Of a stretch of DNA of 64,000 bases, positions 839-41,300 are shown piece after piece. Below the pieces are notes generated by a model that had not been told where the DNA came from, did no database searches, and saw only the letters and a list, made by a program, of their open reading frames with translations. A program made the position numbers and the translations under genes. This DNA comes from Rhizobacter sp. (GTDB taxonomy: Bacteria; Pseudomonadota; Gammaproteobacteria; Burkholderiales; Burkholderiaceae_C). The stretch lies in NCBI GenBank assembly GCA_039931515.1, contig JBDTRU010000016.1. One strand, written 5' to 3'. Positions within the stretch are counted from its first letter, which is position 1; each line of letters begins with the position of its first letter.

Positions 839-910
839 TCGTCATTCCCGCGCAAGCGGGAATCCACGACGTGCACCGATGCTGGATTCCCGCCAGCGCG
901 GGAATGACGA
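839..910. repeat. CGTC-type REP doublet (ATTCCC-N8-GGGAAT arms) between convergent genes
   Basis: GTCATTCCCGCGCAAGCGGGAATCCA (841-866) and inverted TGGATTCCCGCCAGCGCGGGAATGAC (883-908); each arm is also a hairpin. Confidence 0.85.
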
Positions 911-913
911 AGC

Positions 914-2125
914 TCAGCCAATGCGCTCGGCCCGATACCCCGCCGCCCGCATCGCGACAAGAATTTCCTCGATGTGCTCCACGCCCCGCGTGTGCACCAC
1001 CACCTCAATCTGAACGCGCTCCACCGACACCGAGCTGAACGCGCGCTGGTGCTGCACCTCGTCGATGTTGGCGCCCAATTTGCCGAGCCGCGTGGCCACG
1101 TCGGCAAGCGCACCAGGCACATCACGCACGTCGAGCCGCAAGCGCGCGAGCCGGCCCGACTTCACCATGCCGCGTTCGATGATCTCGGCCAGTACCAGCG
1201 GCTCGATGTTGCCGCCGCACAGAATCAGCCCCACTTTGCGGCCGGCCAAGCGCGCGCGGTGCTTCATCACTGCGGCCAGACCGACAGCGCCCGCGCCCTC
1301 GACCACGGTCTTCTCGATCTCGAGCAGCATCACGATGGCCTGCTCGATGTCGTCTTCGCCCACCAGCACCACGTCGTCGACCAGATCGCGGATCAGCGGC
1401 GAGGTGATCACACCCGGTGACTTGACGCCGATGCCATCGGCAATCGTCGCCTGCTGCACTTCCAGGTTCTTGCCGTGCTTGGCATTCCATGCCGCGGGGA
1501 AGCGCTCGGTCTGCGCGCCGATGATCTCGATGCCCGGTTTGAGCGCGCGTGCTGCCGTGGCCACGCCACCGATCAACCCGCCACCGCCGATGGCAACCAC
1601 CAAGGTGTCGAGCGACGGCTGCTGCGCAAGCATCTCCAGGCCGATGGTGCCCTGCCCTGCGATCACCGCCAGGTCATCGAAGGGGTGGATCAGTGTGAGG
1701 TTGCGCTCGCGTGCCAACTGCAGGCCGTGCGCCCGAGCGTCGTCGAAGGTGTCGCCCTCAAGCACCACCTGCACGCCGAAGCGGCGCGTGTTGGCGACCT
1801 TCACCGGTGCGGCAAAACGCGGCATCACGATGGTGGCAGGGATGCCCAGCCGCTGCGCGTGGTAGGCCACGCCCTGCGCATGGTTGCCGGCCGACACCGC
1901 GAGCACGCCGCGGGCACGCTCTTCGTCGCTCAGCTGAGCAATCTTGTTGAGGGCGCCTCGCTCCTTGAAGGAGGCGGTGAACTGCAGGTTTTCGAACTTG
2001 AGAAACACCTCGCAGCCGGCCAGCTCGCTGAGGGTGCGCGAGGGCAGGCAGGGGGTGTCGAGAACATGGCCGCGCAGCCGTTGTGCGGCCGCGCGTATGT
2101 CGTCAATCGTGAGGGGGGTGTCCAT
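914..2125 (-). CDS. ilvA: Threonine ammonia-lyase, medium form with one ACT domain
   Basis: PLP motif 'FLKFENLQFTASFKERGA', 'SAGNHAQG', 'IGGGGLIGG'; C-terminal ACT 'DVPGALADV...GANIDEVQH'. Confidence 0.9.
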   Translation of the reverse strand: MDTPLTIDDIRAAAQRLRGHVLDTPCLPSRTLSELAGCEVFLKFENLQFTASFKERGALNKIAQLSDEERARGVLAVSAGNHAQGVAYHAQRLGIPATIVMPRFAAPVKVANTRRFGVQVVLEGDTFDDARAHGLQLARERNLTLIHPFDDLAVIAGQGTIGLEMLAQQPSLDTLVVAIGGGGLIGGVATAARALKPGIEIIGAQTERFPAAWNAKHGKNLEVQQATIADGIGVKSPGVITSPLIRDLVDDVVLVGEDDIEQAIVMLLEIEKTVVEGAGAVGLAAVMKHRARLAGRKVGLILCGGNIEPLVLAEIIERGMVKSGRLARLRLDVRDVPGALADVATRLGKLGANIDEVQHQRAFSSVSVERVQIEVVVHTRGVEHIEEILVAMRAAGYRAERIG

Positions 2126-2161
2126 GCCCCATTGTGGCCTCGCGGCCCAGTACCTTGGGCG

Positions 2162-8618: not shown

Positions 8619-11111
8619 TCAGGGCGCGAACTCGACGGCCACGTCGCGCGTGTCGGTGACGCCTTGCGCATCGACCACGCTCAGCACATAGCGCCCTGCT
8701 GCCGGCGGCGACCAGCTCAGGTCTTTGCCGGCCTGTGCTTCGCCGACAAAGGCCGCGTCGGCAAACCAGTACAGCGGACCCGACTGCGCCGCGTTGGCGC
8801 GCAGGCTCAGCGGTGTGGGTTGGCCGATGCGCAGCACGTAGTTGGCACCGCGCAGCGGGGCCACGATCTGCGGGCCGTCGCCGGCCACCAGGGCATCGGT
8901 TCGCGCCGCGCCGCAGCGCGCCACCGGAGGGATGCGCCGCGGCAAGCCGGCCTGCGCAAAGATCTGCAGCATGTCGGTACCCCAGAACTCGAACACCTCG
9001 CTGCGCACGCCCGGCCCCGGCGCGCACACGGCATGGCCGGTGGCCTGGTCGATGAAGACTTCGCGGTGCAGGCTGCTGACCTTGATGGGCGACTTGCCTG
9101 GGATGAACCAGGTGCTCGCCAGGTCTTTGCAGTGCGCGTTGGGCAGGTCACCACTGGCCGCGCAGACCGACACCCGCGCCAGGTTGGCCGGTGTGGGCCG
9201 CGCCATCGCGCCGGGGTCCAGGCCCTGGCTGCGCAGGCTGTCGACGATGCTGAAGAACAGCGGCGCGGCAGTCTGCACACCGACGAAGGCCGCGTTGGAG
9301 CTGCCGTCGAAGTTGCCCACCCACACGACGAGCACGTAGCGGCCGAACACGCCGGCTGTCCACGCATCGCGAAAGCCCCAGGAGGTGCCGGTCTTCCACG
9401 CCACTGCCGGGAACGCCGGCATGCCGGTGTCGGGGCGCGGGTTGCGCGAGAGCATGTCGAGGGTGATGAAGGTGGCTTCTTCGCTGAGCAGGCGCTGGGG
9501 TGCAGAAGCCGTTCGCCCTGAGGTATCGAAGGGCCATGCGCTGCCCTTCGATACCTCAGGGCGAACGGTGGGTTGCCCAGTGCGAATGTTGATTTGCGTG
9601 TCTCGTGCCGTGTAGACCAGCGGCAACAGCTCGCCGCCATTGGCCAGCATCGCGTACAGCGTGGCCAGCTCTTCCATGCTCAGCTCGCCACCGCCCAGCG
9701 TGAGCGCCAGGCCGTAGTGCTGCTCGCCCGCGAGCTTGGTGACACCCGCCTGCTTCAAGAATCCATACAGCGAGGGCTGCGACAAGCGCGCCGAGACCGA
9801 CACCGCCGGGATGTTGCGGCTCTTGATCAACGCCTCTTGCGCGGTGATGGGCCCTTCGAAGCGGCCGTCGAAATTCTCGGGGCTGTAGGTGCCGAAGGCA
9901 GTCGGTGCGTCTTTCAGAATCGTGTGCGGGTGCAGCACACCTTGGTCCAGCCCCAGGCCGTAGATGAAGGGCTTGAGCGTGGAGCCGGGCGAGCGCTTGG
10001 CGGTGGTGGCGTTCACCTGGCCATCGATGTCGTCATTGAAATAGTCGGCCGAGCCGACCCAGGCCTTGACCTGCATCGTCGAGCTGTCGACCAGCAAGGC
10101 CGCCGCGTTGCGCACCCCCACGGCCTGCCGCCGCTCGATGAACTGGCGGATGGCGCGCTCCAGCGCAGCCTGCGTCGGTGCATGCAATGACAAGGTGGTT
10201 TGCGGCTGAGCTGGCAGTTGCGCCAGCAGTGTCTGCACCGCATGCGGCGCACCGAAGGGCAGCTGCTTGACTGAGCGCAGCTTGAGCGGCAAATCCATCT
10301 CGGCATCGCGCGCGGCTGATGCGGTGTGCTGCTGTTGCCAAACCTGCCACAGCCGCTCGCGTGCGCCCTGCAGCGCCACCGGCCACGCGGCTTCACCGGC
10401 GCCGCGGCGATTGGGGTTCTGCGGAATGACCGCGAGCGCCAGCGATTCGGGCAGCGACAAATGCACCGCGCGCTTGCCGAAGTAGACGAGGCTCGCCGCG
10501 CCCACGCCCTCGATGTTGCCGCCATACGGCGCGAGGTTGAGATACGCCTCCAGGATGTCGCGCTTGCTGTAACGCGCCTCGAGCCACAGCGCCGCGGCCA
10601 CTTGTTTCAGCTTGCCGCGCGGCGTGCCGCTGTCGATGCGGTAGAGCCTGCGCGCCAGCTGCATGGTGAGGGTGGATGCGCCGCGCCGCGCGCCGCCGCT
10701 GTAGCTCGTCCACGCGCCGCGCACGAGGCTCACCGGGTTCACACCGGGGTGCCAGCGGTACCAACGGTCTTCGTACAACTGCACCGCCTCGACCAGGCGC
10801 GGCTCGATCTCGTTCAGCGGCGTCCACACGCGGTATTGCTCGTCACTCGCCAGCGTGACGCGCAACAGCGCGCCCTCGCTGCTGTAGAAAGCGCGCGACT
10901 GCGCGGCCGTTTGCTGCAGCGGCTGGGTTGGCCACAGGCGCAGTGCGACCAGGCACAGCGCCGTGGCCAGCACCCCCACCCCAACCCATCTGAGCCGGGT
11001 ACCCGTTCGCCCTGAGCCTGTCGAAGGGCCACCGTGCACGGCGCCGGCTTCGACAAGTCCTGTCCTGAGCCTCGTCGAAGGGTCAGCCCGAACGGAGTGG
11101 GGCCGCTTCAC
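8619..11111 (-). CDS. pbpC: Penicillin-binding protein 1C, carrying two in-frame REP insertions
   Basis: Transglycosylase 'QLYEDRWY', 'GASTLTMQLAR'; transpeptidase SxxK 'SPGSTLK', SxN 'SRN', 'KTGT'; GTG start overlaps the A2M stop (GTGA). Confidence 0.93.
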   Translation of the reverse strand: MKRPHSVRADPSTRLRTGLVEAGAVHGGPSTGSGRTGTRLRWVGVGVLATALCLVALRLWPTQPLQQTAAQSRAFYSSEGALLRVTLASDEQYRVWTPLNEIEPRLVEAVQLYEDRWYRWHPGVNPVSLVRGAWTSYSGGARRGASTLTMQLARRLYRIDSGTPRGKLKQVAAALWLEARYSKRDILEAYLNLAPYGGNIEGVGAASLVYFGKRAVHLSLPESLALAVIPQNPNRRGAGEAAWPVALQGARERLWQVWQQQHTASAARDAEMDLPLKLRSVKQLPFGAPHAVQTLLAQLPAQPQTTLSLHAPTQAALERAIRQFIERRQAVGVRNAAALLVDSSTMQVKAWVGSADYFNDDIDGQVNATTAKRSPGSTLKPFIYGLGLDQGVLHPHTILKDAPTAFGTYSPENFDGRFEGPITAQEALIKSRNIPAVSVSARLSQPSLYGFLKQAGVTKLAGEQHYGLALTLGGGELSMEELATLYAMLANGGELLPLVYTARDTQINIRTGQPTVRPEVSKGSAWPFDTSGRTASAPQRLLSEEATFITLDMLSRNPRPDTGMPAFPAVAWKTGTSWGFRDAWTAGVFGRYVLVVWVGNFDGSSNAAFVGVQTAAPLFFSIVDSLRSQGLDPGAMARPTPANLARVSVCAASGDLPNAHCKDLASTWFIPGKSPIKVSSLHREVFIDQATGHAVCAPGPGVRSEVFEFWGTDMLQIFAQAGLPRRIPPVARCGAARTDALVAGDGPQIVAPLRGANYVLRIGQPTPLSLRANAAQSGPLYWFADAAFVGEAQAGKDLSWSPPAAGRYVLSVVDAQGVTDTRDVAVEFAP
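9509..9568. repeat. REP doublet (perfect 26-bp inverted repeat, 8-nt loop) inside pbpC
   Basis: CCGTTCGCCCTGAGGTATCGAAGGGC-catgcgct-GCCCTTCGATACCTCAGGGCGAACGG. Confidence 0.9.
11003..11095. repeat. Composite REP doublet in the 5' end of pbpC
   Basis: CCGTTCGCCCTGAGCCTGTCGAAGGGC ... GCTTCGACAAG[tcctgtcctgagcctcgtcgaaggg]TCAGCCCGAACGG. Confidence 0.85.
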
Positions 11112-14100
11112 TTCGCCCCCACACCCACCACAGCGATGCGACCGGCCAGCGAACGTGCCTGCTTGTCGCGCTCGTACATCGACTCGGCGTAGGCAGGCGG
11201 CACCGTGAACTCACCCGTGTTGGTGGCGCGCAGCCTGTAGCTGTAGGTCTGCACGCTGCTGCCAGCATTGCTGTAGAGCACCACGCGGTCTTCGCGCACG
11301 TCGGCATATTCAAGTGCCGGGCCGGTGACGCTGCTGGCCGCGCCATTGGCGTCGCGGCTTTGCACCACCTCGAAGCCGCCGGGCAGCAGGTCGGTGAGCG
11401 CCACGCTGGACACTCCGCCGCCGATGGCGCGCAGGCTCAGGCGCACCGTGACCTCGTCGCCCAGCTTGACCGAGGTGACGGGCTTGCCATCGGCGCCGAC
11501 GTATTCGCGCAGCACCTCCATGCCGGCCTTCAGCTCTTGCGCCGGCGGCGTGCGGTCAAAGCCACTCTGCGTGGCGCTGTAGTAGGTCGTGATGCTGCGC
11601 GCTTCGTTGGCGAGCTTGAGCTTCACCGTGCCCGGCAGCACCGCAGCGCGAGGCAGCAAGTTGGCCGGCAGCGCGAGCTCGGTACTCGCGCCCTTCGCAT
11701 CGAACTGCATCACCGACAGCTTGCCCATCGCATCGGCACCCAAGGTGCGGGCCATCGCCTCGAAGGCAAGGATGGTGTACGCCGACGACAAGGTGTTGAA
11801 CCAGCCACGGCTCATCGGCGTGACGAATCGGTTCATGGTCTGCGGCGACAGTGTCTTGAGCCGCGCCGGGAAGTGGCGCGCGATCAGGTACAGCGTTTGC
11901 GCATCACGCACCACCGGGTCGTAGTAAGGCCACCAGCGGTAGGCGGTGGTGTCGGCGTCGCTCGCGCGGGCCAGGCCGTCCATCAACTCGGCGGCAGGCT
12001 TTTCTTGCTTGAGCAGCTGGTAGGTCGCCGCGAGGTAGGCCGCCGTCGAATCGGCCTGCCACTCTTTCAGGTACTTGGCGTCCAGCGTTTCGCGCAGGCT
12101 CGCCACCAGCGGCGTGGTGACGGCGCCGTTGCGCGTGAGCAAATAGATGGCATACGCACGGGTGCGCGCCGCGCCCAGGTCGGCCGGGTTGCTGGCCGCG
12201 AGTTGCTGGGCATAGTCGAGCCCCTTGCGCAACACATCGGGCGGCACGCTGACACCGGGGATCTCCAACTCGCGCGCTTCGAGCAGCATGTGCACCGCGT
12301 AGATCGACGCGAACTCATCGGCCTGCACCGACGCGCTCCACAGGCCGAAGCCGCCCTGTGCGTTCTGCCGCGAGCGCAGCACACGCATCGCTTCGTCAAA
12401 GGCCTTGGCGGCGCCCTGCGGTGTGCTCGCACCGAACTCAGGTCGCTTGGCCAACACGAGGCCGGGCAGCACGCGGCTCACCAGTTGCTCGGTGCACTGG
12501 TGCGGGAAGTTGTCGAGGTAGGTCATCAGGCCCGGTGCCATCGCGAGCGGCAGGGCCGAGACGGCAATCTCCTGCTTGCGGTACTCGGGCAACAGGTCGC
12601 GCGGCACCGGCACCTCGGCCGAGCCGGTGAAGCTGCCCAGTGCCACGGTGACGGCACGCGGCGTGGCGGGGCGCACGCTGATGTCCATGCGGCGTGTGGC
12701 CGACTTGCCTGTGGTTTTGTCACCAAGACTGCTGGTGAATTCCAACGTCGCCGAACCCAGGCTCGCGGTCTGCGCATCTTTCACCTTCAGGCGATAGGTC
12801 GCAACCGCCTCGCGCATCGGGCTGATCTTGAGCACCTGGCTCGCAGGGCCGACGAGTTCGAAGGTCGACGCGGGCTTCAACACCAGCTGCACCGGCGCAT
12901 CTTTCGCCGAGTCGGCCACGTTGTTGGCAACACCCACCGACACGTCGAACTGGTCACCGGGCGAGACCGCCAGCGGCACGTTGGGCGAGAGCACGAAGTC
13001 GCCGCGCACCAGCGCCTTGTCTTGCGCGACGCCGACCGCGCCTTCGTTCACCGCGACGGCCATCACGCGCATGGTGCCGTTGAAGTGGTCGGGCACGGTG
13101 TAGCTGAACTCCTTGTCGCCATTCACGTCGACGATGCCCGACCAGTACACGGCGGGCGCCTCGCCCTTGCGCTTGAAGGGGTTCAAGAAGCGTGCATTGG
13201 CACTGCCCTCGTCACCGCCGGGTGCCGACTGCGCCATCAAGCGCTTGAACTCGGGCAGCAGCAGGTCGAGGATCTGCGAGGTGCGAACCTCCAATGCGCG
13301 CTTCTGGAAGAAGTACCCCAGCGGGTCGGCCATCTGGTAGCGCGCGACCTGCAAGATGCCTTCGTCGATGGCGAACACCACGGCACGCGTGGGCTGGCTG
13401 GCGCTGAGCTTCATTTTCAGCACCTGGCCCGGCTTGGTGAGCTCGGGCACGCTGAGCTTGAGCGTTTGCGTGCGCTGCGCGAGGCTGGTGGCAAAGGGCG
13501 CCACGCCATAGCTCAGCGGGCTCATGAAGATCTCGTCGGACGACGGATCGCGCACGAACTGCACGCTCACATAGCCGTTGCCTTCGAAGTCTTTCGGCAG
13601 CTTGATCTTCTGCACCGAGGCAGTGGTCGTGGTCTTGAACCATTGCTGCGCAAACACCTTGTCGCGTTCGATGGTGATCAGCCCGGCGCCCACGTACGGC
13701 GCGCGAATGCTGAGCTCGATGTCTTCACCGGGCGCGTAATCCTTCTTGTTGAGCGTGATCTGCAGCTCGGCATTGCGCTCCAGCGAGCGCGTCACGTTGC
13801 CGGTGCCGGCCACGCTGTAGTCGATGCGGTTCAGCTCGAGCCCGCTCGCATCGCGCAGCACGTAGCTGTAGTTGCCGGCCTTCTTGGTGTCGAGCACCAG
13901 CGCATGACCAGCCGCCGACAAGGCCAGCGGCTGTTCGGACAGCGTGCTCTCCTTCTTGCGCGACTCGTAGCGGTAGGTGTCATTGGGTTGGCGCATCAGC
14001 ACCGAGACCGTCTTGCGCTCGATGAACTGCAGCGTGAGGTCGGGCGCGGCCACCTTCTTCGCCTGCGGGTCGATCGCAATGATCTGGCTCACACGCTTGG

Positions 14101-17026
14101 AGGCGAGCGAGACGAAGCCGAGGTCGCCATCGTGCTTCACGCCAATGAGGAAGGGCCGCTCGGACACCAGCGCGTTCGTCTCGGCCGACACACTGCGCCC
14201 GCCCTCGGGCTCGAACACTTTGGCGAGCAGGCTCAGACGGTAGGTGGCCTTTTCGAAGCGGTTGAGCTTGAGGTCGAACTCGGCATCGCCGTTCGCATCG
14301 GTCTTGCCCTCGGGCAAGTTGTCGTTGACGCCGTCTTTCGCGCGCTGCGGGTCGAAGAACACATAGTCGGCGTAGCCGCGGAAGGCCGGCCAGGCCGGGC
14401 TCAGCGACATCGCCACTTCGACGCGGCGGTTCTCGGCCGGCGTGCCGAAGAGGTTTTGCGCGTTGATGCGGCCTTTCAAATCCTTCGGGCTGACCCAGCC
14501 TTCGCTCAGCGGCGCTGAGAGCTGCGCCGTCACCTTCATGCGGTCGGGCATGAACTCTTGCACCTTGACGGTGGTCGAGCCGATCTGGCGCTCCACCTTG
14601 TCGTCTTTCACGATGTTGAGGTTGATCGTGTAGTTGCCAGTGGGCGAGCTGGCCAGGGTGGTGTGGCTCAGCTCGGCAAAGCCGCAGGCGGCGAGGCGCA
14701 AGCGCTCGCGCTTGACGGTGAGGCCACGCGCATCGAGCACCTCGGCTTCGAGCGGCAGACCGGCCAGCGTCTTATGCCAGTCGGCCGCCTTCACGATCAT
14801 GCCGATGTGCATGGCTTCACCCGGCCGGTAAATGCCGCGGTCGGAGAAGAGGTAGGCGCTTAGCTGGTCGCTGGTGCGCGCGTTTTGCAAGCCGCCCACG
14901 TCGAAGCGCGAGAGGTCGAGGTTGCGGTCGCTGCGGTTCAGCGGCATGAAGCTCATGTCGCCACCCTTGCGCACCATCAGCAGCAACGGCGCGCGTTCAC
15001 GCACCAGGCCTTCGAGCTTGTCGAAGTGGGCGCGGCCATTGACGTCGGTCGCCTGGTTGAAGAGCGTGCTGCCGTTCTTGGCGACGACTTCGACATTGGC
15101 GCCCGCCACCGGCAAGCCGTTGAAGAGCGACTGCACGAACACATCGCGCGAGCCGTCGGTGGACTGCTTGACGACGATGCCGAGGTCGGTCACCAGCACC
15201 AGACGGCGTTGCTGCAGGCTGCTGGGGTCGACGTTGGACTCGCCCTCCGGCTGTTGCTCGTTCTCGTTGCTGCTCTCGTTGCTGTTCTCGTTGCCTTCGC
15301 CGTTCTGCGGCTCGCTGTTTTCTTGTGGCGCGGCCTGCGCCTCGACTTTCTTCGGGTCGAAGCCGGCGATCTTCAGCAGGAACAGGCCCTTGCGCTGATC
15401 GCCGTCTTTCGCCAGGTATTCGGCCAAGTCGATGGCTTCGTAGTGCGCCTTGCCCGGCGCCAGGTTGCCGAGCTTGACAACGCGCTCGAAGCGGTCGGTC
15501 AGGTTGTCGGGCCCGAAGCTGCCGAGGAACTCGGGGTTGGCATAGCTGCCTTGCGACTGCGACACCAGGTGCTGCAGTTGCGCCGGCTGCACGCGGCCGA
15601 CTTCGATCTTCAAACCCGGCAGGTCACGCACCAGCACCGCGAGCTTCTTCTCGCCGCTCATCGGCAGCAAGGCACCTTCGCTCAGGATGCGCAGCTCGGG
15701 CGGGTACGGCGGCATGGTGACCAGGCTTTGCACGCGGTCGCGCATCAGGTAGCCGCCAAATGATTTGAACTTCGGCTCGACCTGCACATAGATGACGCGG
15801 CCCACGTCGGCCCGCAGTTTGAAGCTGTGCGTGTCGGTGTGGTCGCGCTCCGACGGGATGGGCGCCAACGGCAGCTTGGTCGAGGCGGCGAGCACGGTGT
15901 CGGTGATCTCCTTGGTGTCCGACCAGGGGTAAGGGCCCTCTTCCTGGTCTTCTTTCTTGATCGTCGGGTTCTTCAGTGGCAGCAGCCAGGCCGACACGTT
16001 CTTGGCCAGCTCGCGTTCGTGCACGAGTTGCGAGGTGTGGATGACCAGCACGTGCTCGGGCTCGAAGCGCTCGTTGGTGACAACCAGCGGCGTCACGTCG
16101 GTGATGCTCAGGCCGTACTGACCTGGCACGGTGATGGCGCGGGCGAGCTTGTTGCCGCTGCCGTTGCCGCCGGCTTGCGCGGCCACACCCTTGTCAACGT
16201 TCAGCGTCAGCTGCGTGGCTTCTTTCGGTACAGCCAGCACTGCAGAGTGCACATAGGCGTTGAGCTTGAGCTTGTCGTACGAGACGGTGAAGGCAGTGGT
16301 TTCACGGCCCACACCGAGCACGCCCTCAGCCTGGCCCGCCAGGCGCAGCTCGATGCGCTTTTCGAGTTCAGCGGGGTTGACCGGGTGGCTGAAGTGCAGC
16401 TCGAACACGCCCTTCTTGATGGCCGGATCGAGCGGGTCTTGATAGAACTCGCCCTTGCGGACCTTGGCGGCGAAGGGCGCACTGCTGAAGCCGAAGTCGT
16501 AGGTCTGCAACTGCATCTGCGGCGCGAACAACTCGCGCGCCATCGTGGCCTTGAAATCCACGCCCACCGGCCATTCGCTCTTGGGCTCGAAGGCGAGGTG
16601 GCGGTCGTCTTGCCATTTCCAGCTGCCTTCGATGGCCGGCGTCACCGTGATGCCGGCGTCGACTGTCTTGCCCACGGCCGACAGCGGCGCGACCGACTCG
16701 TTGAAGGTGACCGTCACGCCCTGCGGCGTGCCGCCGTTGGCGAAGTCGGTGAGTGCCGGGCCGTTGACGGCCAGGGTCACTTCAACGGGCTTCGGCTGGG
16801 CTTGCCACCAGGCGTAGCCGTAGTAGCCGGCGACGCATGCTGAGATCAAGCCCACTGCAACGACAGCACTCAGTTTGCGATGACGCCCTAGCAGCGCCCG
16901 GGTTGCGCTGGCGCCTTGGGCGGCGCGTGCTCGGCACCAGAGCAGCCAGGGCGGCGCATTCCATACGCCCACCACCATCCCAAGCCACACCCGCACATTG
17001 CCCCACACGAGCCTCATCGCTGCCAT
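11108..17026 (-). CDS. Bacterial alpha-2-macroglobulin (YfhM-like, ~1970 aa)
   Basis: Thioester motif 'FPHQCTEQ' (12485-12496), MG2 motif 'FSDRGIYRPGE', 'VQEFMPDR'; N-terminal TM helix; coupled to pbpC; start taken at MAAMRL. Confidence 0.93.
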   Translation of the reverse strand: MAAMRLVWGNVRVWLGMVVGVWNAPPWLLWCRARAAQGASATRALLGRHRKLSAVVAVGLISACVAGYYGYAWWQAQPKPVEVTLAVNGPALTDFANGGTPQGVTVTFNESVAPLSAVGKTVDAGITVTPAIEGSWKWQDDRHLAFEPKSEWPVGVDFKATMARELFAPQMQLQTYDFGFSSAPFAAKVRKGEFYQDPLDPAIKKGVFELHFSHPVNPAELEKRIELRLAGQAEGVLGVGRETTAFTVSYDKLKLNAYVHSAVLAVPKEATQLTLNVDKGVAAQAGGNGSGNKLARAITVPGQYGLSITDVTPLVVTNERFEPEHVLVIHTSQLVHERELAKNVSAWLLPLKNPTIKKEDQEEGPYPWSDTKEITDTVLAASTKLPLAPIPSERDHTDTHSFKLRADVGRVIYVQVEPKFKSFGGYLMRDRVQSLVTMPPYPPELRILSEGALLPMSGEKKLAVLVRDLPGLKIEVGRVQPAQLQHLVSQSQGSYANPEFLGSFGPDNLTDRFERVVKLGNLAPGKAHYEAIDLAEYLAKDGDQRKGLFLLKIAGFDPKKVEAQAAPQENSEPQNGEGNENSNESSNENEQQPEGESNVDPSSLQQRRLVLVTDLGIVVKQSTDGSRDVFVQSLFNGLPVAGANVEVVAKNGSTLFNQATDVNGRAHFDKLEGLVRERAPLLLMVRKGGDMSFMPLNRSDRNLDLSRFDVGGLQNARTSDQLSAYLFSDRGIYRPGEAMHIGMIVKAADWHKTLAGLPLEAEVLDARGLTVKRERLRLAACGFAELSHTTLASSPTGNYTINLNIVKDDKVERQIGSTTVKVQEFMPDRMKVTAQLSAPLSEGWVSPKDLKGRINAQNLFGTPAENRRVEVAMSLSPAWPAFRGYADYVFFDPQRAKDGVNDNLPEGKTDANGDAEFDLKLNRFEKATYRLSLLAKVFEPEGGRSVSAETNALVSERPFLIGVKHDGDLGFVSLASKRVSQIIAIDPQAKKVAAPDLTLQFIERKTVSVLMRQPNDTYRYESRKKESTLSEQPLALSAAGHALVLDTKKAGNYSYVLRDASGLELNRIDYSVAGTGNVTRSLERNAELQITLNKKDYAPGEDIELSIRAPYVGAGLITIERDKVFAQQWFKTTTTASVQKIKLPKDFEGNGYVSVQFVRDPSSDEIFMSPLSYGVAPFATSLAQRTQTLKLSVPELTKPGQVLKMKLSASQPTRAVVFAIDEGILQVARYQMADPLGYFFQKRALEVRTSQILDLLLPEFKRLMAQSAPGGDEGSANARFLNPFKRKGEAPAVYWSGIVDVNGDKEFSYTVPDHFNGTMRVMAVAVNEGAVGVAQDKALVRGDFVLSPNVPLAVSPGDQFDVSVGVANNVADSAKDAPVQLVLKPASTFELVGPASQVLKISPMREAVATYRLKVKDAQTASLGSATLEFTSSLGDKTTGKSATRRMDISVRPATPRAVTVALGSFTGSAEVPVPRDLLPEYRKQEIAVSALPLAMAPGLMTYLDNFPHQCTEQLVSRVLPGLVLAKRPEFGASTPQGAAKAFDEAMRVLRSRQNAQGGFGLWSASVQADEFASIYAVHMLLEARELEIPGVSVPPDVLRKGLDYAQQLAASNPADLGAARTRAYAIYLLTRNGAVTTPLVASLRETLDAKYLKEWQADSTAAYLAATYQLLKQEKPAAELMDGLARASDADTTAYRWWPYYDPVVRDAQTLYLIARHFPARLKTLSPQTMNRFVTPMSRGWFNTLSSAYTILAFEAMARTLGADAMGKLSVMQFDAKGASTELALPANLLPRAAVLPGTVKLKLANEARSITTYYSATQSGFDRTPPAQELKAGMEVLREYVGADGKPVTSVKLGDEVTVRLSLRAIGGGVSSVALTDLLPGGFEVVQSRDANGAASSVTGPALEYADVREDRVVLYSNAGSSVQTYSYRLRATNTGEFTVPPAYAESMYERDKQARSLAGRIAVVGVGAK

Positions 17027-17173
17027 GTCTGCCCCCCCTGATGTTGTGCCGGAAATCGGTGGCCCATGCCACGTCAAACCGGCGGCCATCTTGCCGGACA
17101 AAAAAGCAGAGCTCAGGAAGGCTTCGTGAAGCCGATGTGAAGTAGTGTGCAAGCCGCGCGTTGCGGCGAGCTG

Positions 17174-33000: not shown

Positions 33001-33097
33001 CGTTCGCCCTGAGCCTGTATTTCCGATCGCCCTGAGCTTGTCGAAGGGAGGGCAGCGCACAACACGGCGCAGGCTTCGACAGGCTCAGCCCGAACGG
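33001..33097. repeat. REP doublet with a duplicated, truncated left arm between cysP and cysT
   Basis: CGTTCGCCCTGAGCCTGT (33001-18), CGATCGCCCTGAGCTTGTCGAAGGG (33024-48), inverted GCTTCGACAGGCTCAGCCCGAACGG (33073-97). Confidence 0.85.
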
Positions 33098-40585: not shown

Positions 40586-40684
40586 CCGTTCGCCCTGAGC
40601 CTGTCGAAGGGTGCTCAGTGCACGGAGCACCCTTCGACAGGCTCAGGGCGAACGGAGAACGGAGAACGGAGAGCGGAGAGCGGA
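40586..40684. repeat. Perfect 31-bp REP inverted repeat followed by five tandem heptamers (GARCGGA)
   Basis: CCGTTCGCCCTGAGCCTGTCGAAGGGTGCTC (40586-616), inverted copy 40625-655; GAACGGA x3 and GAGCGGA x2 at 40650-40684. Confidence 0.9.
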
Positions 40685-40799
40685 GACGATGAGCGCCAAA
40701 GAGAGCCAACAATGATTCGCCCGTGCGGTGCGCTGCACAGTGGATAGGCCCCGCACGGGCACCGGCGAAAAATCAACAGCAGAATCTTCGCTTCGATGC

Positions 40800-41300
40800 C
40801 GCGACCCCGAGCTGCAGAAAGACACCCGCATGGGCCCGCTGGCCAACAGCCGCCGTGTCGAGGCAATGCAGATGTTCGTCGACGACGCGGTGGGCAAGGG
40901 CGCCAAGCTCGCGCTCGGCGGCAAACGGATCGACACCGAAGCTTATTTCTTCGAGCCGACCGTGCTGACCGACGTGCCGGCCAACGCACGCATCCTGAGC
41001 GAAGAGCCCTTCGGGCCCATCGCACCCATCGTCCCGTTCAAGAGCTTCGACGAAGTGGTGGCCGAATCCAACCGCCTGCCCTTCGGCCACGCGGCTTTCG
41101 CTTTCACGAAATCGCTGAAGACCGCCTCGGCCATCAGCGCGGCGATCGAGAGCGGCATGGTGTCGATCAACCACTTCGGCCTGGCCTTGCCCGAAGTGCC
41201 CTTCGGCGGTATCAAAGACTCGGGCTGCGGCACCGAGGGCGGCAACGACGCCATCGGCGCTTATCTCAACAGCAAGTTCGTGACGCAGGTCGGGCTGTAG
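40800..41300 (+). pseudogene. 5'-truncated aldehyde dehydrogenase (SSADH-like) remnant
   Basis: Only C-terminal ~165 aa: 'MGPLANSRR', 'EEPFGP', 'ESGMVSIN', 'PFGGIKDSG.GTEGG'; no NAD-binding or catalytic Cys region upstream. Confidence 0.7.

Follow-up and report, generated by a model that had tools for sequence, protein, structure and literature searches.

In-frame palindromic repeats in a transpeptidase loop and the N-terminal tail of penicillin-binding protein 1C from a Rhizobacter-like bacterium

The DNA analysed here, a 64-kb stretch from a Rhizobacter-like member of the Burkholderiales (hereafter, the window), carries pbpC, the gene for penicillin-binding protein 1C (PBP1C), in which two copies of a palindromic repeat of the repetitive extragenic palindromic (REP) type lie in frame (Table 1). 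The host is a high-G+C, free-living betaproteobacterium from rhizosphere metagenomes, and the window PBP1C protein was encountered on one metagenomic contig of 66 kb. The pbpC frame, 2.5 kb long, is open throughout in DNA of 65% G+C, and its product belongs to the PBP1C class, combining glycosyltransferase (PF00912 Transgly, 7e-43), transpeptidase (PF00905 Transpeptidase, 1.5e-18) and BiPBP_C (PF06832, 1.7e-17) domains with a full set of intact catalytic motifs, namely, EDRW114, STLK377 (residues 377-380), SRN431 and KTG573. The best matches in a fold search were E. coli PBP1b structures, and PBP1a was also matched. Directly upstream, co-oriented with and adjoining pbpC, lies an alpha2-macroglobulin (A2M) gene, and the GTGA stop/start overlap between the two is kept in four related loci (L001-L004). 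The C-terminus of the A2M product aligns with the pbpC neighbours in these loci, and the orthologous neighbour in L085 contains the domains bMG3, MG2, A2M_BRD and A2M. The adjacency of A2M and PBP1C genes has already been described (PMC3735191).

The older of the two inserts contains a palindrome with arms of 26 nt each (9509-9534 and 9543-9568), which are 100% complementary and 8 nt apart; one arm reads CCGTTCGCCCTGAGGTATCGAAGGGC and the other its complement. With up to 3 mismatches allowed, this arm is found in the window solely as the pair within pbpC, and it did not occur in any of 100 dinucleotide shuffles of the window. In the frame of the gene, the palindrome is placed between the SRN (431-433) and KTG (573-575) motifs. 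An earlier, sequence-only reading of the window had described a perfect 26-bp inverted repeat with an 8-nt loop, situated inside pbpC and translated between the SxN region and KTG, and this description was verified in each of its parts. The same reading gave 60 nt (20 codons) as the size of the element, which is correct for the palindrome but not for the inserted DNA: the insert totals 81 nt and includes one degenerate copy of the 21-nt repeat head, located upstream of the palindrome on the sense strand and missing from orthologs with an empty site. In the pbpC gene of L001, the head unit has grown into an in-frame 21-nt tandem array of 4.8 copies (L001 4388-4488). The repeat head (GTTCGCCCTGAG...) appears prone to tandem duplication in general, as seen in the L001 array, at 9569-9589 and 33001-33045 of the window (the latter a 23-nt duplication) and at ~2800-2980 of L096.

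At the RNA level, the palindrome folds into a hairpin of 26 bp, with -69.2 kcal/mol for a 121-nt context and a z score of -9.15, so that the element shares with REPs the stable stem-loop formed from a short palindromic unit. No U-run follows the hairpin in the pbpC mRNA, and an Rfam search with it returned only sub-threshold look-alikes of microRNA hairpins and no family match.

The loop insert is readily delimited by comparison with relatives. A scan of one genome per species yielded 80 pbpC loci, the best matches being metagenome-assembled genomes (MAGs) of Rhizobacter. Protein and DNA alignments revealed ~25 orthologs with an empty loop (L002-L030, P0003, P0004, P0006-P0014), in which ...GGELSPLSF/Y is followed directly by a few residues and then by RRLLSEEA; five of these (P0003, P0004, P0006, P0007 and P0008) are ~89-90% identical to the window protein. 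The mode of loop length is 22-23 residues, found in 63 of 103 orthologs, compared with 51 residues in the window. It had been predicted from the sequence that PBP1C orthologs would show a gap at this position, which they do, and repeat-free orthologs with a homologous segment, which would contradict an insertion, were looked for and not found. The same insert at the same position is present only in L001 (P0002), an independent sister MAG. When the relationship was tested on gap-free codon columns, and thus with the loop excluded, the window and L001 were sisters in four quartets (bootstrap 401-499/500). A single ancestral insertion therefore explains both filled sites, and it is older than the split between the window and L001, that is, than a synonymous divergence (dS) of approximately 0.5. 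The insertion site in the loop is too diverged to read a target-site duplication.

Table 1. Position of pbpC, its neighbour and the repeat elements in the window.
Feature	Position	Strand	Location or evidence
pbpC, penicillin-binding protein 1C, 830 codons from a GTG overlapping the upstream stop (GTGA)	8619..11111	-	
REP-type palindrome, 26-nt arms and 8-nt loop, translated VRPEVSKGSAWPFDTSGRT	9509..9568	-	PBP1C residues 516-534
Degenerate second copy (21 nt) of the REP head, sense-strand sequence CATTCGCACTGGGCAACCCA, encoding IRTGQPT	9569..9589	-	L001 DNA alignment
Second in-frame insert, 111 nt (37 codons), after codon 2, encoding RPHSVRADPSTRLRTGLVEAGAVHGGPSTGSGRTGTR	10995..11105	-	L001 junction alignment
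Alpha2-macroglobulin (yfhM-like) gene, TGA overlapping the pbpC GTG	11108..17152	-	directly upstream of pbpC
Intergenic family copy, canonical GAGCCTGTCGAAGGG subfamily, head duplicated	33001..33097	+	between ABC permease and solute-binding-protein genes
Intergenic, nearly perfect palindrome, 35-nt arms, canonical subfamily	40586..40655	+	followed by heptamer repeats to ~40690
CGTC-1 REP dimer of an unrelated family, CGTC + ATTCCCGC + GCAA + GCGGGAAT + CCA	839..910	+	

An AlphaFold (AF2) model of the window PBP1C, built from 74 orthologs, has a mean predicted local distance difference test score (pLDDT) of 82.5, with values below 50 at residues 1-36, 398-430, 505-509 and 513-533. Two of these four stretches correspond to the two repeat-encoded segments. 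In the model, the loop insert is positioned after helix 479-490 and before helix 544-555, where ortholog lengths vary, and the 10-residue blocks on both of its sides have a pLDDT above 90; the REP segment is thus predicted to fall in a low-confidence stretch between confident flanks, in line with what had been expected of a structural check. With pLDDT below 50 in both inserts and above 90 in the flanks of the loop insert, both behave as low-confidence and probably disordered extensions of an enzyme that is conserved elsewhere along its length. The stretch at residues 398-430 (~9822-9920) is not related to the repeats: it contains the near-invariant ILKDAPTAFGTYSPENFDGRFEGPITAQ, yet has a pLDDT below 50, and it may be a mobile region close to the active site.

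The second insert has a composite palindromic core (11003-11095) of the same family as the loop repeat. Between GTGAAG and CTCA, L001 is shorter by precisely these 111 nt; L002 and L004 do not have the insert either, and it is private to the window lineage. Past the insert, the window sequence CTCAGATGG... aligns with CTCAAGGTC... of L001, and the frame stays open. The insert can be written with a 3-nt CGG on both sides, which is at most a hint of a target-site duplication, the boundary being ambiguous. In L001-L004, pbpC starts at a GTG overlapping the TGA of the A2M gene (AAGTGA), followed immediately by a few basic residues and a hydrophobic anchor. In the window protein, the transmembrane helix is predicted at residues 37-59, and the positively charged RLR is retained before it. 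In the automatic annotation, the protein (P0001, 786 aa) begins at codon 45 (~10977-10979) rather than at 11109-11111. Codons 43 (GTG) and 45 both fall within the predicted helix, and a start at either would drop the preceding RLR; apart from these two, the frame offers as starts just the ancestral GTG and a repeat-internal GTG at codon 25. The start at codon 45 is doubtful because half of the helix would be lost along with the basic residues, and it is probably mis-annotated. Given that both alternative starts cut the membrane helix, we infer that at least part of the N-terminal repeat would be translated, most simply from the ancestral, coupled GTG.

These features bear on whether pbpC is still a working gene or is becoming a pseudogene, the insertions, and especially the one following the start, having disabled its expression or export. 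PBP1C is dispensable in E. coli, the gene has received two insertions, and the younger of these places a structured 93-nt element right after the start, which the automatic call avoids at the price of truncating the anchor. Decay of the gene is nevertheless quite improbable. Over the whole gene, the ratio of nonsynonymous to synonymous substitution rates (dN/dS) between the window and L001 is 0.147 (dS 0.48), and it is 0.077 for the transpeptidase domain outside the loop; comparison with the empty-site allele of L085 gave essentially the same values (0.123 overall and 0.078 for the transpeptidase domain). Hence, pbpC has been under purifying selection since the loop insertion. In addition, a frame of this length remains open in G+C-rich DNA with the motifs intact, both inserts are in frame and free of stop codons, unlike unselected damage, and the RLR still stands ahead of the hydrophobic helix. 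As a coding sequence, the gene is full length.

Repeats break short-read assemblies, and Logan contigs from the public runs X1 and X2 fragment at 9509-9568, which raises the question of an assembly artefact or, alternatively, of a chance palindrome. However, the two flanks are parts of one gene and match orthologs colinearly and in the right frame, the independent MAG L001 has the same insert, and the expectation by chance in the shuffled windows is 0. Furthermore, a contig of X2 extends over 9358-9552 with 0 differences, and contigs of X1 and X2 extend over 10800-11300, likewise with 0 differences; the Logan contigs confirm directly one junction of the loop insert only. We give practically no credence to either artefact or chance. 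A 189-nt 'skip' in one X1 contig, considered as an empty allele, was discarded, since it rests on a side of 24 nt.

The loop that received the older insert has been extended in other lineages as well. P0005, 94% identical in protein to the empty-site P0003 and seen in 3 samples, carries a different repeat in the same pbpC loop, with a net gain of 60 nt, again in frame. This insert, a tail-to-tail dimer of CGTC + ATTCCCGC + GGAG + GCGGGAAT + CCA that is read VIPAEAGIQHRGTSWIPASAGMT (L081-L083), fits exactly the definition of CGTC-1 REPs (Di Nocera, De Gregorio & Rocco 2013; PMC3733652) and is unrelated to the pbpC repeat of the window. The window itself contains a member of the family found in P0005, the element at 839-910, which has an 8-bp stem starting with AT, a 4-nt loop and a CCA tail, and which lies 3 nt downstream of a PALP+ACT (threonine-dehydratase-like) gene at 914-2161(-). 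Other long loops occur in ~12 of the 103 orthologs, some of low complexity. Because two unrelated repeat families and other long inserts are found there, the transpeptidase loop of PBP1C is, as judged from these sequences, a permissive site for insertions and deletions that has been hit independently by at least two repeat families. Loops of 42-56 residues were observed in P0031, P0044, P0057 (L228), P0117 (L229), P0083 (L230), P0085 and P0078; three long-loop orthologs share the motif SPRG[IV]DC..[LP]QA.GC, which could stem from yet another repeat. The DNA of P0057, P0117 and P0083 was checked and is G+C-rich and able to fold, but is without a clear palindrome or repeat element.

The repeat family of the window pbpC is multi-copy and mostly intergenic. 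Besides the core of the N-terminal insert, the window holds two copies with the canonical arm CCGTTCGCCCTGAGCCTGTCGAAGGG, at 33001-33097 and 40586-40655, and a degenerate half-arm at ~49466 (~49467). All three sites had been listed beforehand as intergenic relatives, of which the first two are real and intergenic, whereas the third is the degenerate half-arm only. The palindrome at 40586-40655, behind which four to five heptamers (AGAACGG/AGAGCGG) follow at ~40656-40690, stands beside the truncation point of an aldehyde dehydrogenase gene, of which the ORF 40728-41300(+) represents only the C-terminal third (Pfam Aldedh 294-461 of 461); the region 40586-41300 may hold what is left of a gene after a break associated with the repeat.

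Outside the window, the exact 22-nt arm with GAGGTA was found at no fewer than 119 loci in genome contigs (L086-L204). Among the matches listed, the hosts are beta-, gamma- and deltaproteobacteria and one Rhizobium MAG, an unusually broad range for a REP family; 62 of 119 assessable arms have a partner arm with the complementary TACCTC core, and about half have no partner within 90 nt. The usual partner arm ends in ...CTCAGCCCGAACGG, which creates an internal mismatch, and full symmetry of the kind seen in the pbpC copy is limited to 4 of the 62 paired elements (2 loci). The subfamilies GAGCCTGTCGAAG/CTTCGACAGGCTC and GAGGTATCGAAG/CTTCGATACCTC differ on both arms with pairing kept. That both arms of the loop palindrome carry GAGGTA/TACCTC with pairing preserved had been noted correctly from the sequence. 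However, given how many arms in the family have a TACCTC partner, this state is a subfamily trait inherited with the element. Compensatory evolution in situ, within pbpC, is thereby rejected, the state being common elsewhere in the family. The family termini are CCGTTCG...CGAACGG and do not carry the GTAG/CGTC tag of the superfamilies defined by Di Nocera and co-workers, and no convincing hairpin forms inside a single arm.

Members of the same subfamily also lie in frame in five other proteins (fetched loci L167, L180, L192, L096 and L199): in the inter-domain linker of a lipoyl-domain dihydrolipoyl dehydrogenase (E3), in the DNA polymerase I linker that joins the 5'-nuclease to the 3'-5' exonuclease, in a DnaE2-type polymerase, in a tape-measure protein of a contractile injection system (CIS), where the element sits beside 7-residue tandem repeats (L096), and at the N-terminus of an Opp-type ABC ATPase. 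Two frames of the element are stop-free and the third contains a TGA; the VRPE...SGRT frame is used by all five proteins and by both pbpC copies, even though the second frame is stop-free too. The idea that the frame in use is merely the more hydrophilic one was rejected, its mean hydropathy being -0.82 compared with -0.97 for the other open frame.

This consistent use of one of the two open frames in every intragenic copy seen, the independent arrival of two unrelated REP families in the same PBP1C loop and the other long inserts at this position could be taken to mean that the REP peptide was co-opted, perhaps to give the transpeptidase domain a new surface for interactions, and that the loop is an adaptive hot spot. 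We consider this highly improbable. The inserted sequences are mutually unrelated, so that there is no shared feature to select; the segment is of low predicted confidence and is taken to be disordered; W526 is replaced by R in L001; the same peptide occurs in linkers of unrelated proteins; and recurrent insertions and deletions are what is expected of a permissive loop.

A different question is posed by the degree to which the loop palindrome has been conserved. Between the window and L001, pbpC differs at 14% of all sites (27% of third codon positions), with a mean of 8.2 differences per 60-nt segment, whereas the palindrome is identical at 58 of 60 positions; 2.2% of segments of this size are equally conserved. 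One of the two changes is in the loop and the other in an arm, where the bases can still pair as G.U in the sense RNA of L001. Within the REP, dS is 0.06 compared with 0.48 gene-wide. Divergence is normal in the 21-nt flanking unit and in the loop codons downstream. The pattern could result from selection acting on the hairpin, from gene conversion by other repeat copies or from hairpin-templated repair. When metagenomes were scanned for the junction of REP and pbpC, ACCTCRGGGCGAACGGCTTC, none of the 23 loci retrieved was pbpC, the matches being to a HAD-like gene or to other REP copies, and the conservation test therefore rests on one sequence pair. The sequence ACCTCAGGGCGAACGGCTTC, which matches the repeat end, is also present in this conserved HAD-like gene, encoding ..YLRANGF.. 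(L205, L209, L214, L215, L217 and L221), a coincidence that can yield false repeat matches.

One way to account for the conservation is that the palindrome is functional as a nucleic acid and selected as such. The mRNA hairpin might make translation pause or serve as a checkpoint for folding, it might be cleaved in the manner of an RNase III site and so tune pbpC expression, or the palindrome might still be recognised as a REP site. The low number of differences, the synonymous divergence reduced to 0.06, the preservation of pairing by the lone arm change in L001, the very high stability of the hairpin and the rarity of the fully symmetric kind to which the pbpC copy belongs are all compatible with such a function. 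However, this is a single pairwise comparison, and gene conversion from genomic copies would mimic the pattern. Moreover, the family arms are identical over 22 nt across bacterial classes, which makes conservation a property of the family rather than of pbpC, and most orthologs fare well without the insert, which has no Rfam match. A nucleic-acid function is thus unlikely. A broader proposition, which we put forward tentatively and regard as rather unlikely, is that the PBP1C loop is a recurrent landing site for REPs, reached by two unrelated families in sister lineages, and that the older palindrome has been kept intact at synonymous positions, so that the coding sequence would host a conserved nucleic-acid element (an mRNA hairpin or REP recognition site) with a function of its own or a homogenising mechanism.

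Taken together, the observations are best explained by the insertion into the pbpC coding sequence of two copies of a REP/REPIN-like mobile palindrome, which were tolerated and add disordered peptide to the protein, an explanation to which we assign a probability of roughly 0.8. A family that is otherwise intergenic in this genome would have inserted twice into pbpC, and both inserts would have survived because their length is a multiple of three, their frame is free of stops and they reside at sites that tolerate extra residues. Through the older insert, a short and variable transpeptidase-domain loop located between SxN and KTG would gain ~27 residues; through the younger one, the cytoplasmic N-terminal tail, which leads from the start codon to the membrane anchor, would become 37 residues longer. 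The REP-encoded peptides would be translated and roughly neutral, ribosomes would still initiate at the ancestral GTG, which is coupled to the stop codon of the A2M gene, and the element would presumably move by a mechanism similar to that of REPs and REP-associated tyrosine transposases (RAYTs). The repeat-driven expansion of a protein loop in a cell-wall enzyme, as proposed in the sequence-only reading, is supported by the empty sites, the intact frame, the purifying selection and the low-confidence prediction for the segment.

Several points weigh against this explanation. A search for RNA runs gave none, and translation of the inserts is only inferred. The N-terminal insert is specific to the window, so that dN/dS is silent on its effect, and the comparison between the window and L001 does not cover pbpC function after this insertion. 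The strong structure 16 nt past the start codon could impair initiation, and the gene caller placed the start further downstream. Pure neutrality falls short of explaining the REP with 1 synonymous change where ~6 were expected. The pbpC repeat family lacks the tag of the catalogued REP superfamilies, and 7 window ORFs, mostly neighbours of the repeats, contain no transposase by Pfam, RAYT genes not having been looked for systematically.

Intragenic REPs have been documented before. REPs of the GTAG/CGTC type, which are otherwise mostly intergenic, have been catalogued inside genes of many bacteria. There they often occur as dimers that contribute 20-30 residues to the protein, a gene may contain two of them, and many are close to the N-terminal end; the proteins affected include DNA Pol I and DnaE2, and it has been argued that the placement in loops and linkers is neutral (PMC3733652). 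The family described here similarly occurs in DNA Pol I and DnaE2, has two inserts in pbpC and includes an N-terminal case, and the P0005 insert and the element at 839-910 belong to one of the catalogued groups outright. Unlike the catalogued REPs, the pbpC family is untagged, with CCGTTCG...CGAACGG ends and 26-nt arms devoid of a convincing hairpin within the arm. The present case goes beyond the earlier survey in documenting which relatives have an empty or a filled site, how old the insert is and how the host gene has been selected. The word 'penicillin' is absent from the main text of that survey, its supplementary table of target ORFs not having been searched, and PBP1C may be new to the published lists of REP host proteins. 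A full-text literature search for the typical peptides and DNA of the repeat found no paper.

The sequence-only reading drew a parallel with the Rickettsia palindromic elements (RPEs), selfish palindromes residing in frame in functional genes (Ogata et al. 2000, as referred to by PMC3733652 and PMC3184786). N-terminal decorations by RPE-1 have been reported to be expressed (PMC3733652), and RPEs, which are specific to Rickettsia, mostly measure ~105-146 bp (PMC3184786). The pbpC elements behave like RPEs in being inserted in frame at tolerated positions of a working gene, and this part of the parallel stands. They do not count as RPEs, however, considering the Rhizobacter-like host and the size of the inserts (81 and 111 nt, with a 60-nt core), a relationship in sequence would not be expected, and RPEs are not the sole closest precedent, as the intragenic GTAG/CGTC REPs precede the pbpC case as well.

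With REPINs (REP doublets forming hairpins), the family shares inverted arms that form a long hairpin, a multi-copy and mostly extragenic distribution, and subfamilies with pairing-preserving changes on both arms. The REPIN/RAYT system was reportedly described by Nunvar et al. in 2010 and by Bertels and Rainey in 2011, and REPIN populations are usually lineage-specific. By contrast, the pbpC family spans several proteobacterial classes, most of its copies are internally mismatched and many are solitary arms. Miniature inverted-repeat transposable elements (MITEs), which are small, non-autonomous repeats, can also have open frames fused internally or at the 5' or 3' side to host genes (Delihas 2011, PMC3184786). 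The pbpC inserts are comparable as small repeats with an open frame fused into a host gene, but appear to differ from MITEs in that no terminal inverted repeats surround a distinct core, the entire element being the palindrome.

The locus provides a clean natural example of selfish palindromes lengthening the loops and tails of a protein, and it serves as a warning for annotation, because the automatic call passed over the N-terminal repeat and thereby truncated the membrane anchor. The conservation of the hairpin and the reuse of the loop by different families are small leads on whether such inserts are purely neutral. Set against the known systems, intragenic REPs and RPEs being already familiar, the pbpC case adds a well-documented example of an existing phenomenon, with the modest additions of an untagged repeat family, one loop that has been reused and a hairpin that has been conserved.

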